Positions 2,064-16,722 of a stretch of DNA of 42,263 nucleotides are shown in pieces (position 1 is the first letter of the stretch; each line of letters starts with the position of its first letter). The stretch is from a virus, in the IMG/VR virus record IMGVR_UViG_3300045988_043105, positions 1 through 42,263 of that record. The stretch is one strand, 5' to 3'. The notes beneath the pieces are model-generated. The model ran no database searches. It was not told the DNA's origin and saw only the letters and a program-made list of their open reading frames with translations. The position numbers and the translations under genes were made by a program.

Positions 2064-2796
2064 GACGGCGGAAGCACTCCGCACGGCGCGGGGACTGCTT
2101 GGCACAAGCTATGATGAGCTGGACTGCATCAACCTCATCAAGAAGGTCATCCGCGTCAGCGCGGGCGGGGAGAAAAGCTACACGACGGCAGGCACGAACG
2201 CGCTCTGGGAGAGCGACAAAAACAGCGCGAAATACCGCGACTTGACATGGAAGCAGGAAGGCATTTCCGGCGCGAAGGCGGGAATGCTGGCGTTCATGGG
2301 CGTGGGAACGGGCGACGTGAATCACGTCGGGCTGGTGACGGAGAGGGGGACGGTCGTCCACTCAAGCAAGAGCAGGGGTGGGACGGTCGAAACCGAGCTG
2401 ACGGAAAAGAACGGCTGGAACGGGCTGGGAAAGCACAGGATGATTGAGGTGAATGGAATGGAAAAGGAATTCGGCAACGCGACGGTGAGCGTCACGAGCG
2501 GCTATCTCAACATCCGCGAGGGCGCGGGCACGGCGGCGAAAATCATCGCCAAAGCCGAGAACGGAACGCGGGTGAACGTCATCCGCGAGGCGGGCGGCAC
2601 GGGCTGGGTGTTCGGGAAGCTGGAAAACGGCGTGGCGGGGTACATGGCAGGGGCGTATCTGGTGGAGGACGAGAACGCACCGGACGCCGATGCGGGGAAC
2701 GCTGCGGACGCGGGCGGCGAGGAAACGACGACGCTCAGAAGGAGCGACGGCGTGTATGTTACGCTGATCGGGCGGTGGAAGGTTACAAATGACTGA
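2056..2796 (+). CDS. Endolysin: NlpC/P60-type cysteine peptidase with a C-terminal SH3b-like wall-binding domain
   Basis: Catalytic-type motifs DCINLI, NHVGLV and VVHS. The C-terminal segment GYLNIREGAGT..GWVFGKLENGVAGYMAGAYL is SH3b-like. It sits next to a holin. Confidence 0.8.
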   Translation: MIKTAEALRTARGLLGTSYDELDCINLIKKVIRVSAGGEKSYTTAGTNALWESDKNSAKYRDLTWKQEGISGAKAGMLAFMGVGTGDVNHVGLVTERGTVVHSSKSRGGTVETELTEKNGWNGLGKHRMIEVNGMEKEFGNATVSVTSGYLNIREGAGTAAKIIAKAENGTRVNVIREAGGTGWVFGKLENGVAGYMAGAYLVEDENAPDADAGNAADAGGEETTTLRRSDGVYVTLIGRWKVTND

Positions 2797-2811
2797 TGAG
2801 GTGACGGATAG

Positions 2812-3027
2812 GTGGAATTGACGACATGGCTTCCGGTGGTTGCAAGCGCGGTCGGCAGCCTTGCAGGCGTGCTTGCATCTAACAAGCTGATGCAATATCG
2901 CATCCAGCAGCTCGAAAATAAGGTCAACAAGCACAACAGTATCGTCGAGAGGACGTACAAGCTTGAGGGCGAGGTCAAAGAGCTCCAACATGATGTGCGG
3001 GACTTAAAAGGAGATATCAAGGTATGA
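2812..3027 (+). CDS. Lysis-cassette membrane protein: N-terminal TM plus C-terminal coiled coil (holin accessory, XhlA-like class)
   Basis: GTG start after a GAGGTGA RBS. Hydrophobic N-terminus WLPVVASAVGSLAGVLA followed by heptad-like QQLENKVNKH..VKELQHDVRDLK. ATGA overlap with the holin. Confidence 0.55.
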   Translation: MELTTWLPVVASAVGSLAGVLASNKLMQYRIQQLENKVNKHNSIVERTYKLEGEVKELQHDVRDLKGDIKV

Positions 3028-3278
3028 GGATTAACTGGTTGGTACGCTTTCACAACAAGACGTTTCTGGCGTCGTTTCTGGCGTTGGTGATCGCGTTTGT
3101 CTATAATCTGCTGGCGCTGTTTGGCGTAACGCCATCTGTGCAGCAGGACGCGCTGTTGACTGCTGTCAACGCGATTCTGACGGTGCTGGGCATGATCGGC
3201 GTGATTGCCGACCCGACGACCAAGGGCATCAGCGATAGCGCGCAGGCGATGACCTACGACAAGCCCAAGGAGGGATAA
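3024..3278 (+). CDS. Holin (phi-LC3 / phage_holin_4_1-like)
   Basis: MRINWLVRFHNKTFLASFLALVIAFVYN...GVIADPTTKGISDSAQAMTY matches the characteristic holin family pattern. Two TM segments. Confidence 0.8.
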   Translation: MRINWLVRFHNKTFLASFLALVIAFVYNLLALFGVTPSVQQDALLTAVNAILTVLGMIGVIADPTTKGISDSAQAMTYDKPKEG

Positions 3279-3293
3279 AGGAGGCGGTTTCCC

Positions 3294-3521
3294 GTGCGTC
3301 TTGACTGCGACAGACGCACGAAAGAGGAAATCGCCCATGACTGCGGCTTTGACGAGCACGTCCGGCTAGGTCAGGTCTTCGACCTGCTCTGGCGTGGTTA
3401 CAGCATTGTGCAGATCAGTATGACGCTGGGCATGTCTCCAGCGACCGTCAGCCGCAGCATCAGAGAGATTAAAATACGGATGAGATCATCCTTTCGCAAA
3501 GATGACAATCCCCCGGCCTGA
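3294..3521 (+). CDS. Small HTH protein (sigma-70 region-4 / LuxR-like HTH)
   Basis: AAGGAGG RBS then GTG. GYSIVQISMTLGMSPATVSRSIREIK is a helix-turn-helix segment. Confidence 0.55.
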   Translation: MRLDCDRRTKEEIAHDCGFDEHVRLGQVFDLLWRGYSIVQISMTLGMSPATVSRSIREIKIRMRSSFRKDDNPPA

Positions 3522-3539
3522 TGGCCGGGGCTTTTTTTT
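3511..3539 (+). terminator. Rho-independent terminator closing the late/lysis operon
   Basis: CCCCGGCC-tgat-GGCCGGGG is a perfect 8-bp stem followed by C+T8. The stop codon sits in the loop. Confidence 0.85.
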
Positions 3540-3573
3540 AATGCAAAAATAAATATAAATAATTTAAAAACAC

Positions 3574-3602
3574 TTGACAAGTAAATTGAAATGATGTATT
3601 AT
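3574..3602 (+). promoter_or_regulatory. Near-consensus sigma-70 promoter P1 (TTGACA-17-TATTAT, TG upstream of the -10)
   Basis: TTGACA 3574-3579, 17-nt spacer, TATTAT 3597-3602. Shares AAAACACTTGACAA and AATGAT with the promoter at 5360. Confidence 0.75.
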
Positions 3603-3644
3603 ATGACCACAAAGAACAAAGGAATCAACCAATAGGAGGAAATC

Positions 3645-4094
3645 ATGAAAAAGTATTATTTGGTGGGCGAGGATATCGCCCGCCGCGAGATCACTGCTGA
3701 GCAGGTGCGCGAATATGCCGGAGACAGTGACTACCGCGTCATTGTCGAGGAGGACGGCAAGCAAGAGCCGCGCCGCGTTGCCTCCGCAGATCTCGCTCCG
3801 GACTGGGAGCCGTTTGTCTTCCCTCCGCGCGAAGGGTATCGGCTGACCGGTTACGAGATCGTGCGGTCGGATTACGAGGGACGGAGCTTCCCGGCGGACT
3901 CCATCCCCGCTGAAGCGGTTAAAACCCAATGGGCTAACCGTTGGGAGGTGCCGGGGGTAAACCCTGCCATCTACTACGCAGAGCCGGTATATGAGCCGAT
4001 TACCTGTGAGGGTGTCGGTGCTTGTGTGTCCTGTAAGCGGCTGACCTGTTCCCGCCGCGGCGCGGGCGTCCGTTGCCGCAATTACAAGGCATGA
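3645..4094 (+). CDS. Hypothetical protein (149 aa), first gene of accessory cassette 1; Cys/Arg-rich C-terminus
   Basis: AGGAGGA RBS 6 nt upstream of the ATG. No family recognised. Confidence 0.65.
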   Translation: MKKYYLVGEDIARREITAEQVREYAGDSDYRVIVEEDGKQEPRRVASADLAPDWEPFVFPPREGYRLTGYEIVRSDYEGRSFPADSIPAEAVKTQWANRWEVPGVNPAIYYAEPVYEPITCEGVGACVSCKRLTCSRRGAGVRCRNYKA

Positions 4095-4136
4095 TTTCGT
4101 CGCACGCAGACGTGGACGGCGAAGAAGGGAGAAAAA

Positions 4137-4487
4137 ATGGAAAAGGTAATTTGCGGCCTTTGCGCCGCCCGCCACCCGCTGCCGGTGACGGAGTACATTT
4201 ACCCCGAGACCGTCAACCCGTTGGATTTTGACGGTCTCAAGGCGGGCGCGGTTAAGTTCATCCTTGACCGCGTGGGCGTTGAGTCTGTGTACGCCCAGCC
4301 GATCAACGGCAACGATTACACGGACACGGAGTGCTTCCGCGGTCGTCGTGAGCTGGTGGTCTACGTCACCGGCTTGACGGCGGCTACAGCGGCAGTCATT
4401 GCCGCATGCGCAGAAAACGGCGTGCATCTGACGTTGATGCACTTTGACCGTGAGTGCGGCGATTATAAGCCGCAGGTAATCTTTTGA
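4137..4487 (+). CDS. Hypothetical protein (116 aa), cassette 1
   Basis: GAAGGGAG RBS. The segment VVYVTGLTAATAAVIAACAENGVHLTLMHFD suggests a small alpha/beta domain. Family not recognised. Confidence 0.65.
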   Translation: MEKVICGLCAARHPLPVTEYIYPETVNPLDFDGLKAGAVKFILDRVGVESVYAQPINGNDYTDTECFRGRRELVVYVTGLTAATAAVIAACAENGVHLTLMHFDRECGDYKPQVIF

Positions 4488-4501
4488 GAGGGGCGGAAAA
4501 A

Positions 4502-4996
4502 ATGAACATTAAACAGCTGCGCATCCTGCGCGGATTGAAGCAGAAGGAGCTGGCGGATAAGATGGGTATATCCGCGCAGCAACTCAATAACTATGAAGGG
4601 GGTAAGAGCAACCCCGGAAACAAAATTCTGCCCGCGCTGGCGGATGCGCTGGGCGTTTCGACCGCCTACCTTCGGGGGGGCGCGCAGCGTTTGGCCGTCT
4701 ATGACTGGCAGACCGGGCGCACTGAGGCGCTGCCCATCATGGCCGAGACGGTGATCGACGATTACGGCATCTTCTACCTCGTCGAGCACCCGGAGATTGG
4801 AATGATGGCGGTGATCCAGTCTGAGGGTATGCAGTTTACTCTTGCGGACTGGACGGCAGATCAACCGCTGACCGTCGATGCAATCAGCGGGAAGCAGTGG
4901 ATTGACAGTCGCGGCGAGGATGCAATCATGTACAAGGGGCTACCGCGCATTCTTGTTGGCGGCGAATTTGGGAGTAAGCAAAGCCGTATTATCTGA
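4502..4996 (+). CDS. XRE-family HTH regulator with a roughly 100-aa C-terminal domain of unknown function
   Basis: MNIKQLRILRGLKQKELADKMGISAQQLNNYEGGKSNP is a classic XRE HTH. ATG 4502 is preferred over the track's TTG 4484. Confidence 0.8.
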   Translation: MNIKQLRILRGLKQKELADKMGISAQQLNNYEGGKSNPGNKILPALADALGVSTAYLRGGAQRLAVYDWQTGRTEALPIMAETVIDDYGIFYLVEHPEIGMMAVIQSEGMQFTLADWTADQPLTVDAISGKQWIDSRGEDAIMYKGLPRILVGGEFGSKQSRII

Positions 4997-9512: not shown

Positions 9513-10628
9513 CTATTTTTTCGCCGAAACAGACCCGTACAAGGCTGCTGTTCCAGCCGCCATTTTGGCGTTGACCTCTTCCTGCCGTTCGCGGAAAAGC
9601 TCGACGTACACCTGATGGGAGAAGGCGGACGTTGAATGACCCATGACGCGGGCAAGCTCTTCCTCGGACGCACCGGAGTAGGCGACGGATGTTGCGAAAA
9701 AGTGCCTCAAATCGTAAAAGCGCATCTTTTCTGGAAGCTCCAGTGCCGCTCTGCATTTTTTCCACCTGTAGTCAACGAGCATCGGCTTTAACGTCAGTAT
9801 TTGGTCACAGTCAGCACCTCGCGGCTTGCAATCGTACAGATTTTGGAAGAAAGACCAATCGAGACGAAGCACCCGCTCTCCTGCATCTGTTTTTGTGACG
9901 TTTTTTCCGACATATGCGCTGGATTCATCGCGCACCGTGGCTTTGTCAATGCTCAAAAGCCCCATCTTGTAGACCCTTCCATCTCTGCTGATTGCGGAGA
10001 CGGGTTCAGCGGACAGATCACCCCACGTCAAAGCGTATGCCTCAGATGGGCGTAAACCTGCGCTCACGATGAAGCAGCAATAAAGGTAGAAATCCACTTC
10101 CCAATGCTCTTTGGCGTAGGTCAGCACGTCTCGCGCCCAGCCCTCAGAAAAAAGCTGTTTCTTCGATTTTCGGCGTTTGGCTATGACGACGCCAGACAGA
10201 TTCAGATCGGGGGCGTATTTTCCCAAAACTGAGCGCAAGAAGTAAAATTCATTCCGAACCGTTTTCACGGAATGATCTTTAGCTCTTGTGTCAATCGCCT
10301 TTTGGATATCTCGCTCTGTGATTTGATCTAAGCGCAAAGAGACAAGTGCTGGAAAGCCATTTGCCCGTATCGAGACATACGCCGGAATCGTAGACGGCGA
10401 ATAGCCCTGCACCCTACAAGTATCTATAAACTCGTCCATCGCCTGACCGAGCGTCAGCGTTTGCTTCTTCTTCCTCTTGCGATCGGCAGCGGCGACGGCG
10501 GCGAGACGTTCAGATTCGCGGGCAGTCGATGCGGTAAAGGATTCGACGATGGGCTTTCCCGCCGCATCACTGCCGAGGTAAACCTGTGTTCGCCAGTTAC
10601 CGGAAGGCAGCTTTTTGGCTTTTGCCAT
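9513..10628 (-). CDS. int: Tyrosine recombinase / phage integrase
   Basis: The N-terminus MAKAKKLPSGNWRTQVYLG is an arm-binding type. The C-terminal YDLRHFFAT...MGHSTSAFSHQVYVE carries the R..H.R..Y catalytic pattern. AAGGGGGA RBS. Confidence 0.9.
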   Translation of the reverse strand: MAKAKKLPSGNWRTQVYLGSDAAGKPIVESFTASTARESERLAAVAAADRKRKKKQTLTLGQAMDEFIDTCRVQGYSPSTIPAYVSIRANGFPALVSLRLDQITERDIQKAIDTRAKDHSVKTVRNEFYFLRSVLGKYAPDLNLSGVVIAKRRKSKKQLFSEGWARDVLTYAKEHWEVDFYLYCCFIVSAGLRPSEAYALTWGDLSAEPVSAISRDGRVYKMGLLSIDKATVRDESSAYVGKNVTKTDAGERVLRLDWSFFQNLYDCKPRGADCDQILTLKPMLVDYRWKKCRAALELPEKMRFYDLRHFFATSVAYSGASEEELARVMGHSTSAFSHQVYVELFRERQEEVNAKMAAGTAALYGSVSAKK

Positions 10629-12054: not shown

Positions 12055-12234
12055 ATGCAAACAACAAAAGCTGAGGCAAAAAAGGTAAAAATGATTTTGA
12101 ATGATCGGGAATATCGTTCGTTGTTGCTTTTTAGGACGCTGACCCCTGGCCAGCAAAAGTATTTTCTGACTTTGGAAAGCCGTATATCAAAAGTTCATCC
12201 GAAAGCCGACGACCTTCATCTGATGAAGCCCTAA
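12055..12234 (+). CDS. Possible small protein (59 aa) converging on and overlapping the repressor 3' end
   Basis: GAGGTGA RBS 6 nt before ATG 12055. It overlaps the minus-strand repressor gene by about 100 nt, so only one of the two tails may be real. Confidence 0.3.
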   Translation: MQTTKAEAKKVKMILNDREYRSLLLFRTLTPGQQKYFLTLESRISKVHPKADDLHLMKP

Positions 12235-12496
12235 AATTCATTAAGTGTCGGTATTCTTCATCCGAAAGCTCGCATGTATGACATGTGGGCTTTTTTGTGT
12301 CTTTTGGGTTATCGGTCAAAAGATAATCGATGGTAACGCCGAAACAATCTGCGATTTTTCGCAGCATTGCAATATCCGGTTCAGCTTTGCCATTCTCATA
12401 CAGGCTTATCGTCGATTCAGAAACGCCCATCAGGTTTCCGAGCTGCTTCATGGTCATTCCAGCAGCCTTGCGCAATGCACGAATATTATTAGTCAT
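12131..12496 (-). CDS. CI-like lysogeny repressor (XRE HTH)
   Basis: MTNNIRALRKAAGMTMKQLGNLMGVSESTISLYENGKAEP is an XRE HTH. AAGGAG RBS. Divergent from a Cro-like gene across an operator-rich region. Confidence 0.8.
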   Translation of the reverse strand: MTNNIRALRKAAGMTMKQLGNLMGVSESTISLYENGKAEPDIAMLRKIADCFGVTIDYLLTDNPKDTKKPTCHTCELSDEEYRHLMNFRASSDEGRRLSDELLIYGFPKSENTFAGQGSAS

Positions 12497-12648
12497 ATGC
12501 TGAAATCTCCTTTTTTTATTATTATAAACTTGATTTTTCCTCAAGTAAATAGGCTTGAAAAAAACTCAAGAAAATTACTAAAAACGCTTGACTGTTGCTC
12601 AAGGATGATGTATACTTGAGTAAAGTTAAAGAAAAAGGAGGTTACAGC
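12497..12648. promoter_or_regulatory. Genetic switch: divergent promoters plus repeated CTTGA/CTCAAG operator half-sites
   Basis: The + promoter is TTGACT 12588-12593, 17 nt, TATACT 12611-12616. The - promoter has a TATAAT -10 (plus-strand 12521-12526) and a TTTACT -35 (12544-12549). Inverted repeats: ACTTGA-n7-TCAAGT (12528-12546), CTTGA-n6-CTCAAG (12554-12570 and 12587-12603), CTCAAG-n11-CTTGAG (12598-12620). Confidence 0.75.
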
Positions 12649-14545: not shown

Positions 14546-15472
14546 ATGGAAAGACAGGCAAGGAACACGGCGGGAATCATCACAAACGCAACCGCCAGCC
14601 GCGCACCAGTCGCGGCGACTACGACCGCGCCCGTTGCGGCGCGAACCGTCAACCAAATTCTGAATGGCATGTTCGATTCCGAGGGCTACAAAAAACGCCT
14701 GAACGATTTGCTGGGCGATCGAGCGCCGCAATTTATCTCGGCGGTCATCACGCTTTGCAATGCGGATGCAAACCTGACGGCGGCGGTTCGTCAAGCCCCT
14801 CAGACGGTCATTCAGGCGGCGCTCAAAGCCGCAAGCTATGACCTTCCGGTCGATAACGCGCTCGGATTTGCGTACATCGTACCATTTAATAATAGCAAAA
14901 AGATGGACGATGGGAGCTGGATCAAGATTCCGGAAGCGCAGTTCATTCTCGGCTACAAAGGCATGATTCAGCTTGCGCTCAGAACCGGGGCATACAAGCG
15001 GCTGAACGTCATGGATGTGCGTGAAGGAGAGCTGATCTCCTGCGACAGGTTGACAGAAGACTTCGAGTTCCGCTGGGAACAGGACGAGGCGGAGCGTGAG
15101 AAACTGCCGATCATCGGCTATGTCGGCTACTATCGCCTTGTGAATGGCACGGAGAAAACGGTGTACATGAGCGTTCAGCAGATCGAGGCGCACGAAGCGA
15201 AGAACCGCAAGGGAAAGAATCAGGGCAAAGGATGGCGCGACGATTGGGACGCTATGGCGCGAAAAACCGTCATGCGCCGCTTGCTCGGACGCTGGGGCGT
15301 TATGTCCATCGACTACAAGAGCGCATCGCCCGCCGCGCTGAAAGCGGCGCATGATATAAGCGCGGGGCTGGTCGATGATGAATCTCCGTTGCCTGACGGC
15401 ATCTTAGATGTAACAGACACAGGAGCAGCACATGACGCGCCGGAGAACGCGCCCGAAGACAAGGAACAATAA
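14546..15472 (+). CDS. recT: RecT-family single-strand annealing protein
   Basis: AAGGAGG RBS. LGFAYIVPFNN...FILGYKGMIQLALRTGAYK is a RecT core. Confidence 0.85.
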   Translation: MERQARNTAGIITNATASRAPVAATTTAPVAARTVNQILNGMFDSEGYKKRLNDLLGDRAPQFISAVITLCNADANLTAAVRQAPQTVIQAALKAASYDLPVDNALGFAYIVPFNNSKKMDDGSWIKIPEAQFILGYKGMIQLALRTGAYKRLNVMDVREGELISCDRLTEDFEFRWEQDEAEREKLPIIGYVGYYRLVNGTEKTVYMSVQQIEAHEAKNRKGKNQGKGWRDDWDAMARKTVMRRLLGRWGVMSIDYKSASPAALKAAHDISAGLVDDESPLPDGILDVTDTGAAHDAPENAPEDKEQ

Positions 15473-15500
15473 AAACCGCAAGGGTTAAACCCTTGCACAT

Positions 15501-15579
15501 GGCGGTCAGCTCAGGGAGCAGCCTGTCTTGCGGGTAGCAGCGCGGGCGGGCAGGGGTGGCTCGATACCACCGACCACCA
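15501..15579 (+). ncRNA. tRNA-like module A (non-canonical; degenerate tRNA or mimic)
   Basis: The acceptor GGCGGTC/GACCACC pairs at 6 of 7 positions. D-arm-like AGCTCAGGGAGC, T-arm GGTGG-CTCGATA-CCACC, discriminator A. The anticodon region is expanded to 19-23 nt. Confidence 0.35.
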
Positions 15580-15787
15580 AGCAGAAGTGTTAAAGCATGT
15601 CACTCTTTATCCAACGACCGCGCCGAAGAGAAAGGCGGCGCAATGCCACACAAAAACCGAATAAAGCAAATTCATACTGGCGGCTCGGAAAGACGAGCAA
15701 CACCATTTTTTCGACGGCGGGAAAGACCGCGAAATAAAAATCATCATTTCCAAATGGTTCGCCGCTGGGTCAAACCAGCGGCAACAC

Positions 15788-15921
15788 GGCAAGCATGGAA
15801 GGCATAGCGCGGGTGCAACACCCCCCCTATTCGTCAAGGTTTCTTCCTTTTCTTCCCTTCTCAAACAAGATTGACGCGAAGCACCTTGCCCACGCGCCCG
15901 GTTCAAATCCGGGGCTTGCCA
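15788..15921 (+). ncRNA. tRNA-like module B (134 nt; acceptor + T-arm with expanded inner domains)
   Basis: GGCAAGC/GCTTGCC pairs 7 of 7. T-arm CCCGG-TTCAAAT-CCGGG, discriminator A, no encoded CCA. The inner helix CAAGGT/ACCTTG encloses a 42-nt pyrimidine-rich loop. Confidence 0.4.
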
Positions 15922-15951
15922 CAATCTAAAAACCACGAAAGGAGACGTAAA

Positions 15952-16722
15952 ATGTTGGATTACCTGAAGGTATTCCCGGACATTGAGATCCTTATCAAAC
16001 GATATGATGAAGCACAGTGTGGGCGGTTATTTATGGCCATGATGGCTTACGCATACCGCCAAGAGTTGCCGACGTTTGAGGAGGACGCGCCTGAATGGTA
16101 TGTCTGGGAGTATATCCAATATAAGATTGACCAGTGTGCAGAATCGCTTGAAACCAAGCGGGCAAGCGGTAAAAAGGGCGGAAGCGTCAAGCAGACCGAA
16201 GCAGACGAAAGCACATCGAAGCAAACGCAAGCAGAAGCAAGCGAAGTCAAGCAGACCGAAGCAGACGAAAGCAAAACCGACATATATAAGAATAAGAATA
16301 TGAATAAGAATAAGAATAAGAATAAGAGTAGTAGTAGTGGTTACGTACCCCCTACCCCCTATGACGACCTCGACGACGACGAACTGCGGCGACTGCGGCA
16401 GGAACAGCAGGACGTGGAAACAGCGGCAAAGCGCGTCGGGCTGCCCGTCAGCGCGATGAGCGACTATGACACCATGGACAACCTGCGGGCAGAACATGGA
16501 GCGGACAACCTGATCAAGGCAATCAACAGGATTCAGGGCGCGGCGGAGAAATGCCGAAGTTGGAGGTATGTCGGCGGGATTCTGCGGAAGGAGAAGTCCG
16601 CTGGGTACACATGGGCAGAGAGAGCGACTGAGAGCGGCGGCGGAACGGCGGGAGATGCAGAGGTGCTGACCCGCAACCCGTTCGCGCTGCAATCGCTTAA
16701 ATGCAGGGAGGGTGTCACGTGA
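15952..16722 (+). CDS. Replication initiator-like protein (phage N-terminal domain + low-complexity linker + DnaD-like C-terminal domain)
   Basis: AAAGGAGA RBS before ATG 15952. The C-terminus LIKAINRIQGAAEKCRSWRYVGGILRK is DnaD/DnaB_2-like. Confidence 0.65.
   Translation: MLDYLKVFPDIEILIKRYDEAQCGRLFMAMMAYAYRQELPTFEEDAPEWYVWEYIQYKIDQCAESLETKRASGKKGGSVKQTEADESTSKQTQAEASEVKQTEADESKTDIYKNKNMNKNKNKNKSSSSGYVPPTPYDDLDDDELRRLRQEQQDVETAAKRVGLPVSAMSDYDTMDNLRAEHGADNLIKAINRIQGAAEKCRSWRYVGGILRKEKSAGYTWAERATESGGGTAGDAEVLTRNPFALQSLKCREGVT
16186..16340 (+). repeat. Repeats inside the initiator gene: two 28-bp direct repeats 60 bp apart plus an AT-rich (AAGAAT)n and (AGT)4 tract
   Basis: gtcaagcagaccgaagcagacgaaagca occurs at 16186-16213 and 16246-16273. 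aagaataagaatatgaataagaataagaataagaataag spans 16288-16326. Confidence 0.85.

Follow-up and report, generated by a model that had tools for sequence, protein, structure and literature searches.

A structured RNA element with two tRNA-like modules and a hairpin array upstream of the replication organiser gene of a temperate gut phage and its relatives

INTRODUCTION

What occupies the 479 nucleotides (nt) between the RecT-family gene and the replication organiser gene of a temperate gut phage, if not a protein-coding gene? The question arises from IMG/VR virus record IMGVR_UViG_3300045988_043105, whose whole 42,263-nt stretch is called the window here. The window represents a temperate phage of ~42 kb from human-gut metagenomes. 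The gap lies in its rightward early operon and extends from the stop of the RecT-family gene (14546-15472) to the ATG at 15952 of a gene whose product Pfam assigns to DUF6291 (replication organiser). Public gene calls on identical contigs leave the 479 nt empty. An earlier interpretation made from the letters alone, the sequence-only reading, considered this the longest gene-free stretch of the genome. The gap is indeed uncalled, but its rank as the longest could not be confirmed by tiling open reading frames (ORFs), because spurious antisense ORFs make greedy tiling uninformative on this point.

The results described here indicate that the gap most likely encodes a conserved, folded noncoding RNA (ncRNA). 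We assign a probability of about 0.5 to the reading that it is a co-transcribed, multimodule structured ncRNA of the early operon that would be processed at tRNA-like handles to release RNAs acting in trans. No published description of this element was found in literature searches.

RESULTS AND DISCUSSION

Conservation of a folded RNA on the plus strand

About 32 distinct variants of the element were found in IMG/VR, and their helices are kept through compensatory and G·U changes. The RecT proteins of the relatives are 97 to 99% identical, versus only 70 to 85% identity for the element DNA. When the second of two tRNA-like modules (module B) was aligned together with the hairpin that precedes it (H2), 94.5% of the cells paired, versus 34 to 45% with the partner slid, and 8 pairs were changed on both sides versus 1.5 +/- 1.0, with none of 500 shuffles reaching 8. 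Three pairs of H2 have both sides changed across relatives. In the first module (module A) compensatory changes affect 6 pairs, with the acceptor, the T stem, and the inner stem all included, and the hairpin in front of it (H1), which is kept in relatives, has one compensatory change from A-U to G-C. Compensatory and G·U changes in both modules and in all of the hairpins demonstrate that structure on the plus strand is conserved. For example, 17 of 25 sequences have U-G as pair 3:70 of module A, most of the others have U-A or C-G, and the window has C·A; the U-G pair would read as an A·C mismatch on the minus strand, and thus the pairing is specific to the plus strand. The folding energy of the 479 nt on that strand is also lower than that of shuffled sequences (z = -3.3).

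These findings support the suggestion of the sequence-only reading that the region holds a structured ncRNA with tRNA-mimic modules within a larger phage RNA: covariation in the homologues, plus-strand G·U pairs, and the coding tests described below all agree with it. Each of the hairpins and both of the tRNA-shaped modules that it listed are present on the plus strand at the positions given below. A strict scan looked for an NTCRANN loop on a 5-bp T stem and required the next 7 nt to be perfectly complementary to a 7-mer located 60 to 260 nt upstream. Module B was the sole match in the whole window, both strands included, and the same scan of other RecT-phage loci (450,682 nt on each of two strands) gave 0 matches. 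A relaxed version of the scan recovers both modules, with 1.4 matches expected per shuffled window over both strands.

The locus is a structured phage ncRNA that matches no Rfam family or ARAGORN model. ARAGORN called 0 tRNAs and 0 transfer-messenger RNAs (tmRNAs) in the window, and Rfam 15 gave 0 matches in the window at the gathering threshold. At E <= 10, the region had chance matches to small nucleolar RNAs only and none to RF00005, GOLLD, ROOL, C4, YrlA, or the tRNA-like structure (TLS) families. Rfam had 0 matches at E <= 1 on locus L005 and found genuine tRNAs only on related loci. The lack of a match to tmRNA or any familiar RNA class, remarked upon earlier, extends to these searches. 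Comparisons of the region, and of 4.5 kb around it, with the GenBank phage collection by blastn ("distant") returned zero matches.

ORFs of 83 and 109 amino acids (aa) exist in the region, but a small protein gene, either ORF 15556-15807 or the minus-strand ORF 15607-15936, is an extremely unlikely explanation. Substitutions in ORF 15556-15807 are spread evenly over the codon positions (7 to 14 each), and 7 or 8 of the 9 or 10 indels are not multiples of three, so that most shift the frame. No ORF is conserved among the variants, in which the longest ORF changes strand, frame, and length, and public gene callers call nothing. The coding signal that might have contradicted an RNA is thus lacking for ORF 15556-15807.

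Module A and hairpin H1

Module A (15501-15579, plus strand) ends in discriminator A15579, and CCA is not encoded. Its acceptor, D-arm-like, and T-arm elements are found as the sequence-only reading had them. The acceptor GGCGGTC/GACCACC (15501-07/15572-78) forms 6 of 7 pairs, with C·A at 3:70, and can be extended to 8 bp. The D arm GCTC-AGG-GAGC (15509-19) has a 4-bp stem and a loop of 3 to 4 nt that contains GG. It is followed by an elongated arm of 4 + 4 bp (15521-51) with an 8-nt loop (15533-40), the 3' half of which, AGCRG, is conserved, and by the T arm GGTGG-CTCGATA-CCACC (15555-71), with a loop of CUCGAUA or GUCGAUA among variants. The elongated arm comes in three sequence classes that retain the same shape, and acceptor variants include GGCGGUC/GACCRCC versus GGYGCGC/GCGCGCC.

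The assertion that neither module folds as a canonical cloverleaf needs amendment for module A, whose minimum free energy structure is a cloverleaf after all, though a noncanonical one; it stands for module B, which has no D arm or anticodon arm. Canonical tRNAs were considered and rejected for both modules: ARAGORN found none, RF00005 gave no match at E <= 10, module A has an 8-nt loop, a 4 + 4 bp arm, and a 3-nt D loop, and module B lacks the two arms just named. A covariance model of H1 plus module A scored the window at 124 bits; its weak matches elsewhere were a hairpin plus tRNA-like element in L271 and the Escherichia coli tRNA-Ala. The simpler module A pattern CAGCTCAGG..TCGANNCC was unspecific and retrieved real tRNAs.

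H1 (CGCAAGGGTTAAACCCTTGCG; 15477-15497, plus strand) stops 3 nt short of module A. On the minus strand (15497-15477), the hairpin closely resembles an intrinsic terminator, with the stem followed by GTTTTTATTG. In locus L021, a different hairpin replaces H1 at the same position directly before module A. This replacement also has a T run on the minus strand, a feature that other relatives do not have. Downstream of module A, a variable spacer (15580-15676, plus strand) contains a class-specific GC hairpin (about 15617-40) and the linker AAGCAAATTCATA. The spacer is poorly conserved between classes, with a conserved linker of the form ..GCAAAT..CATACTGG.

Module B and hairpin H2

H2 (GCCGCTGG-GTCAAA-CCAGCGGC; 15761-15782, plus strand) ends 5 nt before module B (15788-15921, plus strand; 128 to 161 nt among variants). 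The acceptor GGCAAGC/GCTTGCC (15788-94/15914-20; 7 of 7 pairs), the T arm CCCGG-TTCAAAT-CCGGG (15897-15913), discriminator A15921, and the inner helix CAAGGT/ACCTTG (15835-40/15883-88) that had been proposed for it are all present. Acceptor and T arm are invariant among variants, apart from a T loop of UUCAAAU or UUCGAUU. An unpaired loop containing GG (AUGGAAGGCAUA; 15795-15806; 11 to 12 nt among variants) leads into helix P2 (15807-13/15889-95), which abuts the T arm. P2 occurs with compensatory changes in three body types, as CGCGCGGG/CCCNCGCG, CGGCGCGGG/CCCGCGCCG, and CAGCGGG/CCC-N-GYUG; the window P2 has C·A and A·G mismatches. The body (15814-88) has a CU-rich tract (15840-62) and a conserved segment (15871-91). 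Among variants the body is always pyrimidine rich and terminates in the conserved UUGACGCGAAGCACCUUGCCC; CCUCC, UUCCU, or UCCUU is frequently present. After the acceptor, N-CCA (G-, A-, or U-CCA) is encoded by about one-half of the variants; the window has A-CAA.

Two short sequences inside module B resemble its acceptor strands: the invariant CCUUGCC (15883-15891) repeats the 3' strand GCUUGCC (15914-15920), and GGAAGGC (15797-15803) repeats the 5' strand GGCAAGC. These repeats suggest that the acceptor might pair in an alternative way, a possible conformational switch. Covariation between the discriminator or NCCA and a UGGN flank, as in a T-box-like contact, was not seen by eye, and there was no consistent complementarity for kissing between the hairpin loops and the CU tract.

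The layout of module B resembles the tRNA-like domain (TLD) of tmRNA, with a 7-bp acceptor, an unpaired GG-containing analogue of the D loop, P2 where a tRNA would have its anticodon and D stems, a T arm directly adjoining P2, and NCCA in many relatives. It differs from tmRNA in that it has no G3:U70 pair, tag ORF, resume codon, or pseudoknot ring within its 128 to 161 nt. A miniature tmRNA, or another aminoacylatable tRNA-like RNA that enters the ribosome, might be considered on the basis of this layout, the encoded N-CCA, and the 8-nt loop of module A, which is like that of frameshift-suppressor tRNAs. However, pair 3:70 is C-G instead of G-U, the discriminator is A, G, or U, the three nonhomologous bodies share no conserved tag frame, and ARAGORN and the Rfam tmRNA and tRNA models are silent. 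We regard this explanation as highly improbable.

It is also very unlikely that the modules are decaying tRNA genes, the functionless remnants of a phage tRNA cluster. Their tRNA-like shape, the silence of ARAGORN and Rfam, the C·A mismatch in the module A acceptor and the C·A and A·G mismatches in P2 of the window, and the occurrence of related arrays inside genuine tRNA clusters would fit such an origin. However, compensatory changes maintain the helices across 32 variants, and features that tRNAs do not have are conserved, namely the 8-nt loop ending in AGCRG, the elongated arm, P2, and the 15871-91 segment. The option of degenerate tRNAs, which the sequence-only reading had entertained, is disfavoured on these grounds.

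The hairpin array

Between the modules is an array of hairpins, two of which have the identical GAAAGA hexaloops noticed earlier (GCTCG-GAAAGA-CGAGC, 15683-15698; GCGG-GAAAGA-CCGC, 15717-15730). The other GC-rich hairpins of the region are those at 15477-97, about 15617-40, and 15761-82. Unit 1 (15677-15698, plus strand) consists of a CTGGCGG flank and the first of the hexaloop hairpins, and unit 2 (15711-15730, plus strand) of a TCGACGG flank and the second; both stems covary. The loop G-GARAGA-C is invariant across 59 distinct units, and 34 of the 38 distinct GGARAGAC occurrences have a stem of at least 4 bp. There are two units in the window and one, two, five, or six in relatives, spaced 32 to 39 nt apart. 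The stems of the GGARAGAC occurrences have 11 different sequences with 11 G·U pairs, and the reverse complement folds worse. A conserved asymmetric loop, free variation of complementary arms, and G·U pairs indicate RNA hairpins of the plus strand rather than protein-binding DNA repeats. The Tandem Repeats Finder program (TRF) found no tandem repeat in 15473-15951. An array like that of the ToxI type III antitoxins was considered and rejected: the loop and a short flank are all that the units have in common, their stems differ, and there is no ToxN-like gene nearby.

Resemblance to 23S rRNA

The segment CGGAAAGAC of the hairpin unit is identical to positions 2055-2063 of 23S rRNA, the strand of A2058/A2059, as checked on the E. 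coli and Clostridioides difficile 23S sequences. This strand is the macrolide-binding site that Erm methylates (PMC12887398). The match extends over 23S 2048-2063 (GRC..CGGAAAGAC), with the flank GRC(A) in register with G2048-C2050 in several independent families. The flank plus loop is CGACAGAUCGGAAAGAC in the window-type family, GACAGGCGGGAAAGACC in L384, GACAGCCCGGAAAGAC in L344 and L352, and GACACGCCGGAAAGAC in L355 and L343, and the flanks of other phage units are GGCACGCC.. and GGCAACCC..; the same register of 23S reads GACAGGACGGAAAGAC in C. difficile and GGCAAGACGGAAAGAC in E. coli. The chance of the 9-mer with its flank was estimated, roughly and post hoc, at the order of 1e-3 to 1e-4.

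The minimal requirement of Erm is A2051-A2058 plus the partner strand, i.e., an unpaired adenine beside a helix (PMC7449152). A substrate mimic for the Erm/KsgA (RRAD) family would present an unpaired target adenine beside a helix, within G-G-A-A-A-G; the hairpin unit agrees with 23S 2048-2063 in sequence and register. The unit also resembles 23S helix 73 and the minimal Erm substrate in leaving the equivalents of A2058-A2062 unpaired beside a helix (PMC7449152; "RNA15" in PMC12887398). In contrast to helix 73, it is closed by its own 3' strand rather than by 2611-2625, and its stem sequence varies freely.

Mimicry of rRNA at multiple sites was rejected, as the number and recurrence of matches equal those in shuffled controls. 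The matches within chance include 15476-15490 (H1) with 16S 895-909 (h27), 15622-15633 with 23S 618-629 (also given as 618-634), and the module A loop with the 530 loop. The match of 15874-15887 with 16S 968-981 (also given as 967-981; ACGCGAAGAACCTT) is likewise within chance; it falls in the most conserved part of the module B body.

A wider phage family

A pattern scan of IMG/VR for two GARAGA-type loops 20 to 40 nt apart found the hairpin unit (YUGRC(R)G, stem, GAAAGA, stem) in many unrelated contigs, in arrays of two to six: L363, L367, L384, L372 (2965-3083), L355, L344, L352 (1799-1844), L337, L339, L343, and L334. In L363, L367, and L384, another tRNA-like module, GGGGAGU...ACUCCCCA, comes immediately after an array of three to six units (CACACU|GGGGAGU...). 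Its length is about 125 nt in the first two contigs and about 85 nt in L384, which has a second tRNA-like module upstream of the array. The two units of L372 are between tRNA-His and tRNA-Ile, and the two units of L352 may form a separate, stand-alone transcript. The array of L344 is near the terminase gene, those of L363 and L337 precede a Mu-type transposase gene, and that of L355 is between a phage Prp protease gene and scaffold/capsid genes. In this Prp cysteine protease phage, the scaffold (MRRLNLRMF|DG) and capsid (..KLNLRLF|DD) proteins begin with L27-like LNLxxF cleavage motifs. In L373 (about 2200-4900, minus strand), a cluster of 21 tRNAs has a tRNA-free gap of ~2.7 kb with a GAAAGA unit and T-arm-like sequences. 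Rfam matches nothing in this gap other than tRNAs, and the gap may hold a larger ncRNA.

Genome scans with the 3' end of module B found an 83-nt tRNA-like element between the terminator of the major capsid gene and the next ribosome-binding site (RBS) in two prophages of Clostridia metagenome-assembled genomes. Capsid relatives have other, sequence-unrelated tRNA-like inserts at the same spot, each with an acceptor, a T arm, and a long arm, with the anti-Shine-Dalgarno-like CCUCC in a loop and sometimes N-CCA; most capsid relatives have no insert. Such capsid-type inserts were located in unrelated Clostridia phages or prophages at L267 (3093-3175), L269, L270 (2678-2769), L271 (2667-2758), L286 (2763-2891), L293 (2658-2742), and L287 (about 2690-2770). 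The capsid-type element of L267 has the trailer UUUACUUUAA in common with the 15921-15951 region of the window. Neither ARAGORN nor Rfam calls the tRNA-like modules of this wider family. Recurrence in very different phages, beside replication genes or a Mu-type transposase gene, in late operons, and within tRNA clusters, points to a general RNA device, and the distribution of the hairpin unit points to a wide phage family, probably in gut Firmicutes and beyond, that Rfam does not hold.

This distribution also bears on whether the hairpins act as DNA, in a structured replication origin or single-strand initiation site. The element adjoins genes for the replication organiser and a helicase loader, and the hairpins are repeated with a spacing of 32 to 39 nt. 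However, late operons and tRNA arrays contain the units as well, the arms differ between copies so that only the asymmetric loop is conserved, the G·U pairs are strand specific, and the loops do not change with the N-terminal type of the organiser. A better candidate is inside the organiser gene itself, where an array of 8.6 tandem copies of CAAGCAGACG (16188-16273) is followed by the AT-rich block (ATAAGA)7 (16286-16327). These iterons and the AT-rich block (16187-16327) are likely the origin of this phage, in a layout similar to that of the lambda origin inside gene O. The proposal of a structured origin in the gap, the other alternative of the sequence-only reading, thus has little left to recommend it, and we judge it highly improbable.

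Gene context and mosaicism

The DUF6291 gene is followed by genes for a G39P-type helicase loader, VRR-NUC, SSB, and Dam; on the minus strand, the window also has genes for an integrase (9513-10628) and a CI-type repressor (12131-12544). No sigma-70-like promoter and no plus-strand terminator were predicted inside the 479-nt region. The trailer (15922-15954, plus strand) contains the RBS (AAAGGAGA, 15938-45) and the ATG of the DUF6291 gene.

The gap is 479 to 905 nt long across variants. It is preceded by a gene for RecT, SSB, or another protein of 221 to 231 aa or by an inserted ORF that is helix-turn-helix (HTH)-like, and the downstream replication organiser has two N-terminal types. At L021 (4928-5377), for example, an extra ORF of ~136 aa, HTH-like by eye, is between recT and the element. 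The element itself is mosaic, with the three module A arm classes and three nonhomologous module B bodies, and the trailer sequence that comes after the discriminator differs according to which type of gene is downstream. The mosaic modules and this tracking suggest that recombination breakpoints fall at module boundaries.

Proposed processing into trans-acting RNAs and a possible leader in cis

In both modules, a T arm with a 5-bp stem and a 7-nt loop stacks on the 7-bp acceptor. The sequence determinants expected of RNase P and RNase Z substrates are present: G1-C72, the 7 + 5 bp stack, a T loop of UUCRANU, and GG at the D-loop position. Most relatives have U at -1 (CAU|GG), and N-CCA is encoded by about one variant in two. 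Each module has a GC hairpin 3 to 5 nt in front of it, an arrangement that other families show too (L363 and L367, and the terminator followed by a module after capsid genes). To judge from these features, the odds are roughly even that the modules are substrates of RNase P and of RNase Z or the CCA-adding enzyme. RNase P would cut 5' of G15501 and G15788, and processing after A15579 and A15921 would fall to RNase Z or exonucleases together with the CCA-adding enzyme. The upstream RNAs would then end in the protective hairpins H1 and H2, and a middle RNA with the G-GARAGA-C hairpins and a stable, tRNA-scaffolded, pyrimidine-rich RNA (module B) would be set free. The mRNA of the replication gene would be split off with a short leader. 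In this reading, the RNAs set free would most probably function in trans by mimicking or sponging RNA of the translation apparatus, through the A2058-strand hairpins and the CU-rich, anti-Shine-Dalgarno-like tracts.

That the released RNAs titrate a protein as such mimics is more speculative than the processing and has a rather low probability. A more specific version is more doubtful still. In it, tRNA-shaped scaffolds and hairpin arrays that display the A2058 strand, accompanied by CU-rich or CCUCC anti-Shine-Dalgarno-like loops, would be processed decoys that sequester host factors acting against tRNA and rRNA, or modifying them, during infection, with the copy number of one to six tuned by selection. 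Within that version, candidate targets might be toxin RNases of the MazF-mt3/mt6 type (U^CCUU, UU^CCU), toxins that modify tRNA ends, and methyltransferases of the Erm/KsgA families. The CU-rich bodies carry UUCCU, UCCUU, and CCUCC, motifs at which MazF-mt3 and MazF-mt6 cleave 23S H70 and the 16S anti-Shine-Dalgarno sequence (PMC5408214).

Several observations weigh against processing into trans-acting RNAs. The overall rRNA similarity of the elements is not above that of shuffles, with only the hairpin unit standing out, and the extra family loci were picked with the CGGAAAGAC 9-mer itself. The CU-rich body is not a specific anti-RBS for the downstream gene, in that duplex energies are no better than those of shuffles (mean z = +0.47). 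A discriminator of A, G, or U, and a CCA that is not always encoded, make specific aminoacylation unlikely, and no obvious RNA enzyme was seen among the window genes that were checked. In addition, the distance from the end of module B to the organiser start codon is 29 to 35 nt in 32 of 32 variants, whatever the upstream gene, which fits a leader in cis.

Such a leader, an RNA attached to the message of the organiser gene that controls its translation, mRNA stability, or read-through (put/nut-like antitermination), is a possible alternative, if an unlikely one. In addition to the constant spacing, the organiser gene always accompanies the element whatever is upstream, the trailer follows the downstream gene type, arrays of other phages are at operon or module boundaries (before transposase, terminase, and scaffold/capsid genes), and the loops can be likened to the GAARA loops of lambda boxB. 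However, the hairpin unit is also found between tRNA genes and possibly as a stand-alone transcript, complementarity to the RBS is not specific, and the region has no plus-strand terminator. Furthermore, a copy number that varies from one to six among near-identical phages suggests dosage rather than a switch.

Comparison with known RNAs

If the transcript is processed into RNAs that act in trans, it has partial counterparts among known systems. The tRNA-miRNA-encoded RNAs (TMERs) of murine gammaherpesvirus 68 (MHV68) have a similar layout, in which a nondecoding viral tRNA-like module is fused to pre-microRNA hairpins and cut by tRNase Z (PMC4838037, PMC4045068). They differ in being eukaryotic RNA polymerase III units, whereas the phage element has no microRNA precursors and two modules that flank an array. 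The engineered tRNA scaffold of Ponchon and Dardel likewise keeps the acceptor, T arm, and D-loop contacts and replaces the anticodon arm with a payload, which confers processing and stability (PMC3753655); unlike the scaffold, the phage element is natural.

In MALAT1/mascRNA and in bacterial mRNA-tRNA co-transcripts (secG-leuU and the tufB operon), an RNase P cut makes the 3' end of the upstream RNA, which is protected by structure; in contrast to MALAT1/mascRNA, the protective element here would be a simple GC hairpin. Phage small RNAs that are tRNA-like or processed by RNase P include the stable RNAs C and D of T4 (species 1 and 2), which are encoded beside tRNA genes, C4 of P1/P7, and CI of P4. 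These RNAs have no hairpin array and no sequence or Rfam relationship to the element (C4 was not matched). The CsrB/RsmZ sponges and the pseudo-ToxI arrays of PhiTE share with the array an invariant short motif, variable stems and copy number, and titration as the mode of action that is proposed here. However, the motif differs from the A(N)GGA of tetra- or pentaloops, and the array does not consist of identical, toxin-cut tandem repeats. Bacterial Y RNA (YrlA) had no Rfam match, and there was no TROVE gene among the neighbours checked, which were part of the window genes. Viral tRNA-like RNAs and RNase P-processed phage RNAs are already known; the composite of tRNA-like handles that flank a copy-variable hairpin array, with an invariant loop and flank equal to the A2058 strand, is not.

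Implications

If the element is processed as proposed, phages would use the tRNA-maturation machinery of the host to punctuate operons and as a source of small, stable RNAs. Should the hairpins mimic rRNA, they would represent a new class of factors, based on RNA, for counter-defence or host takeover, and the G-GARAGA-C loop would provide a concrete handle for finding the protein that is bound.

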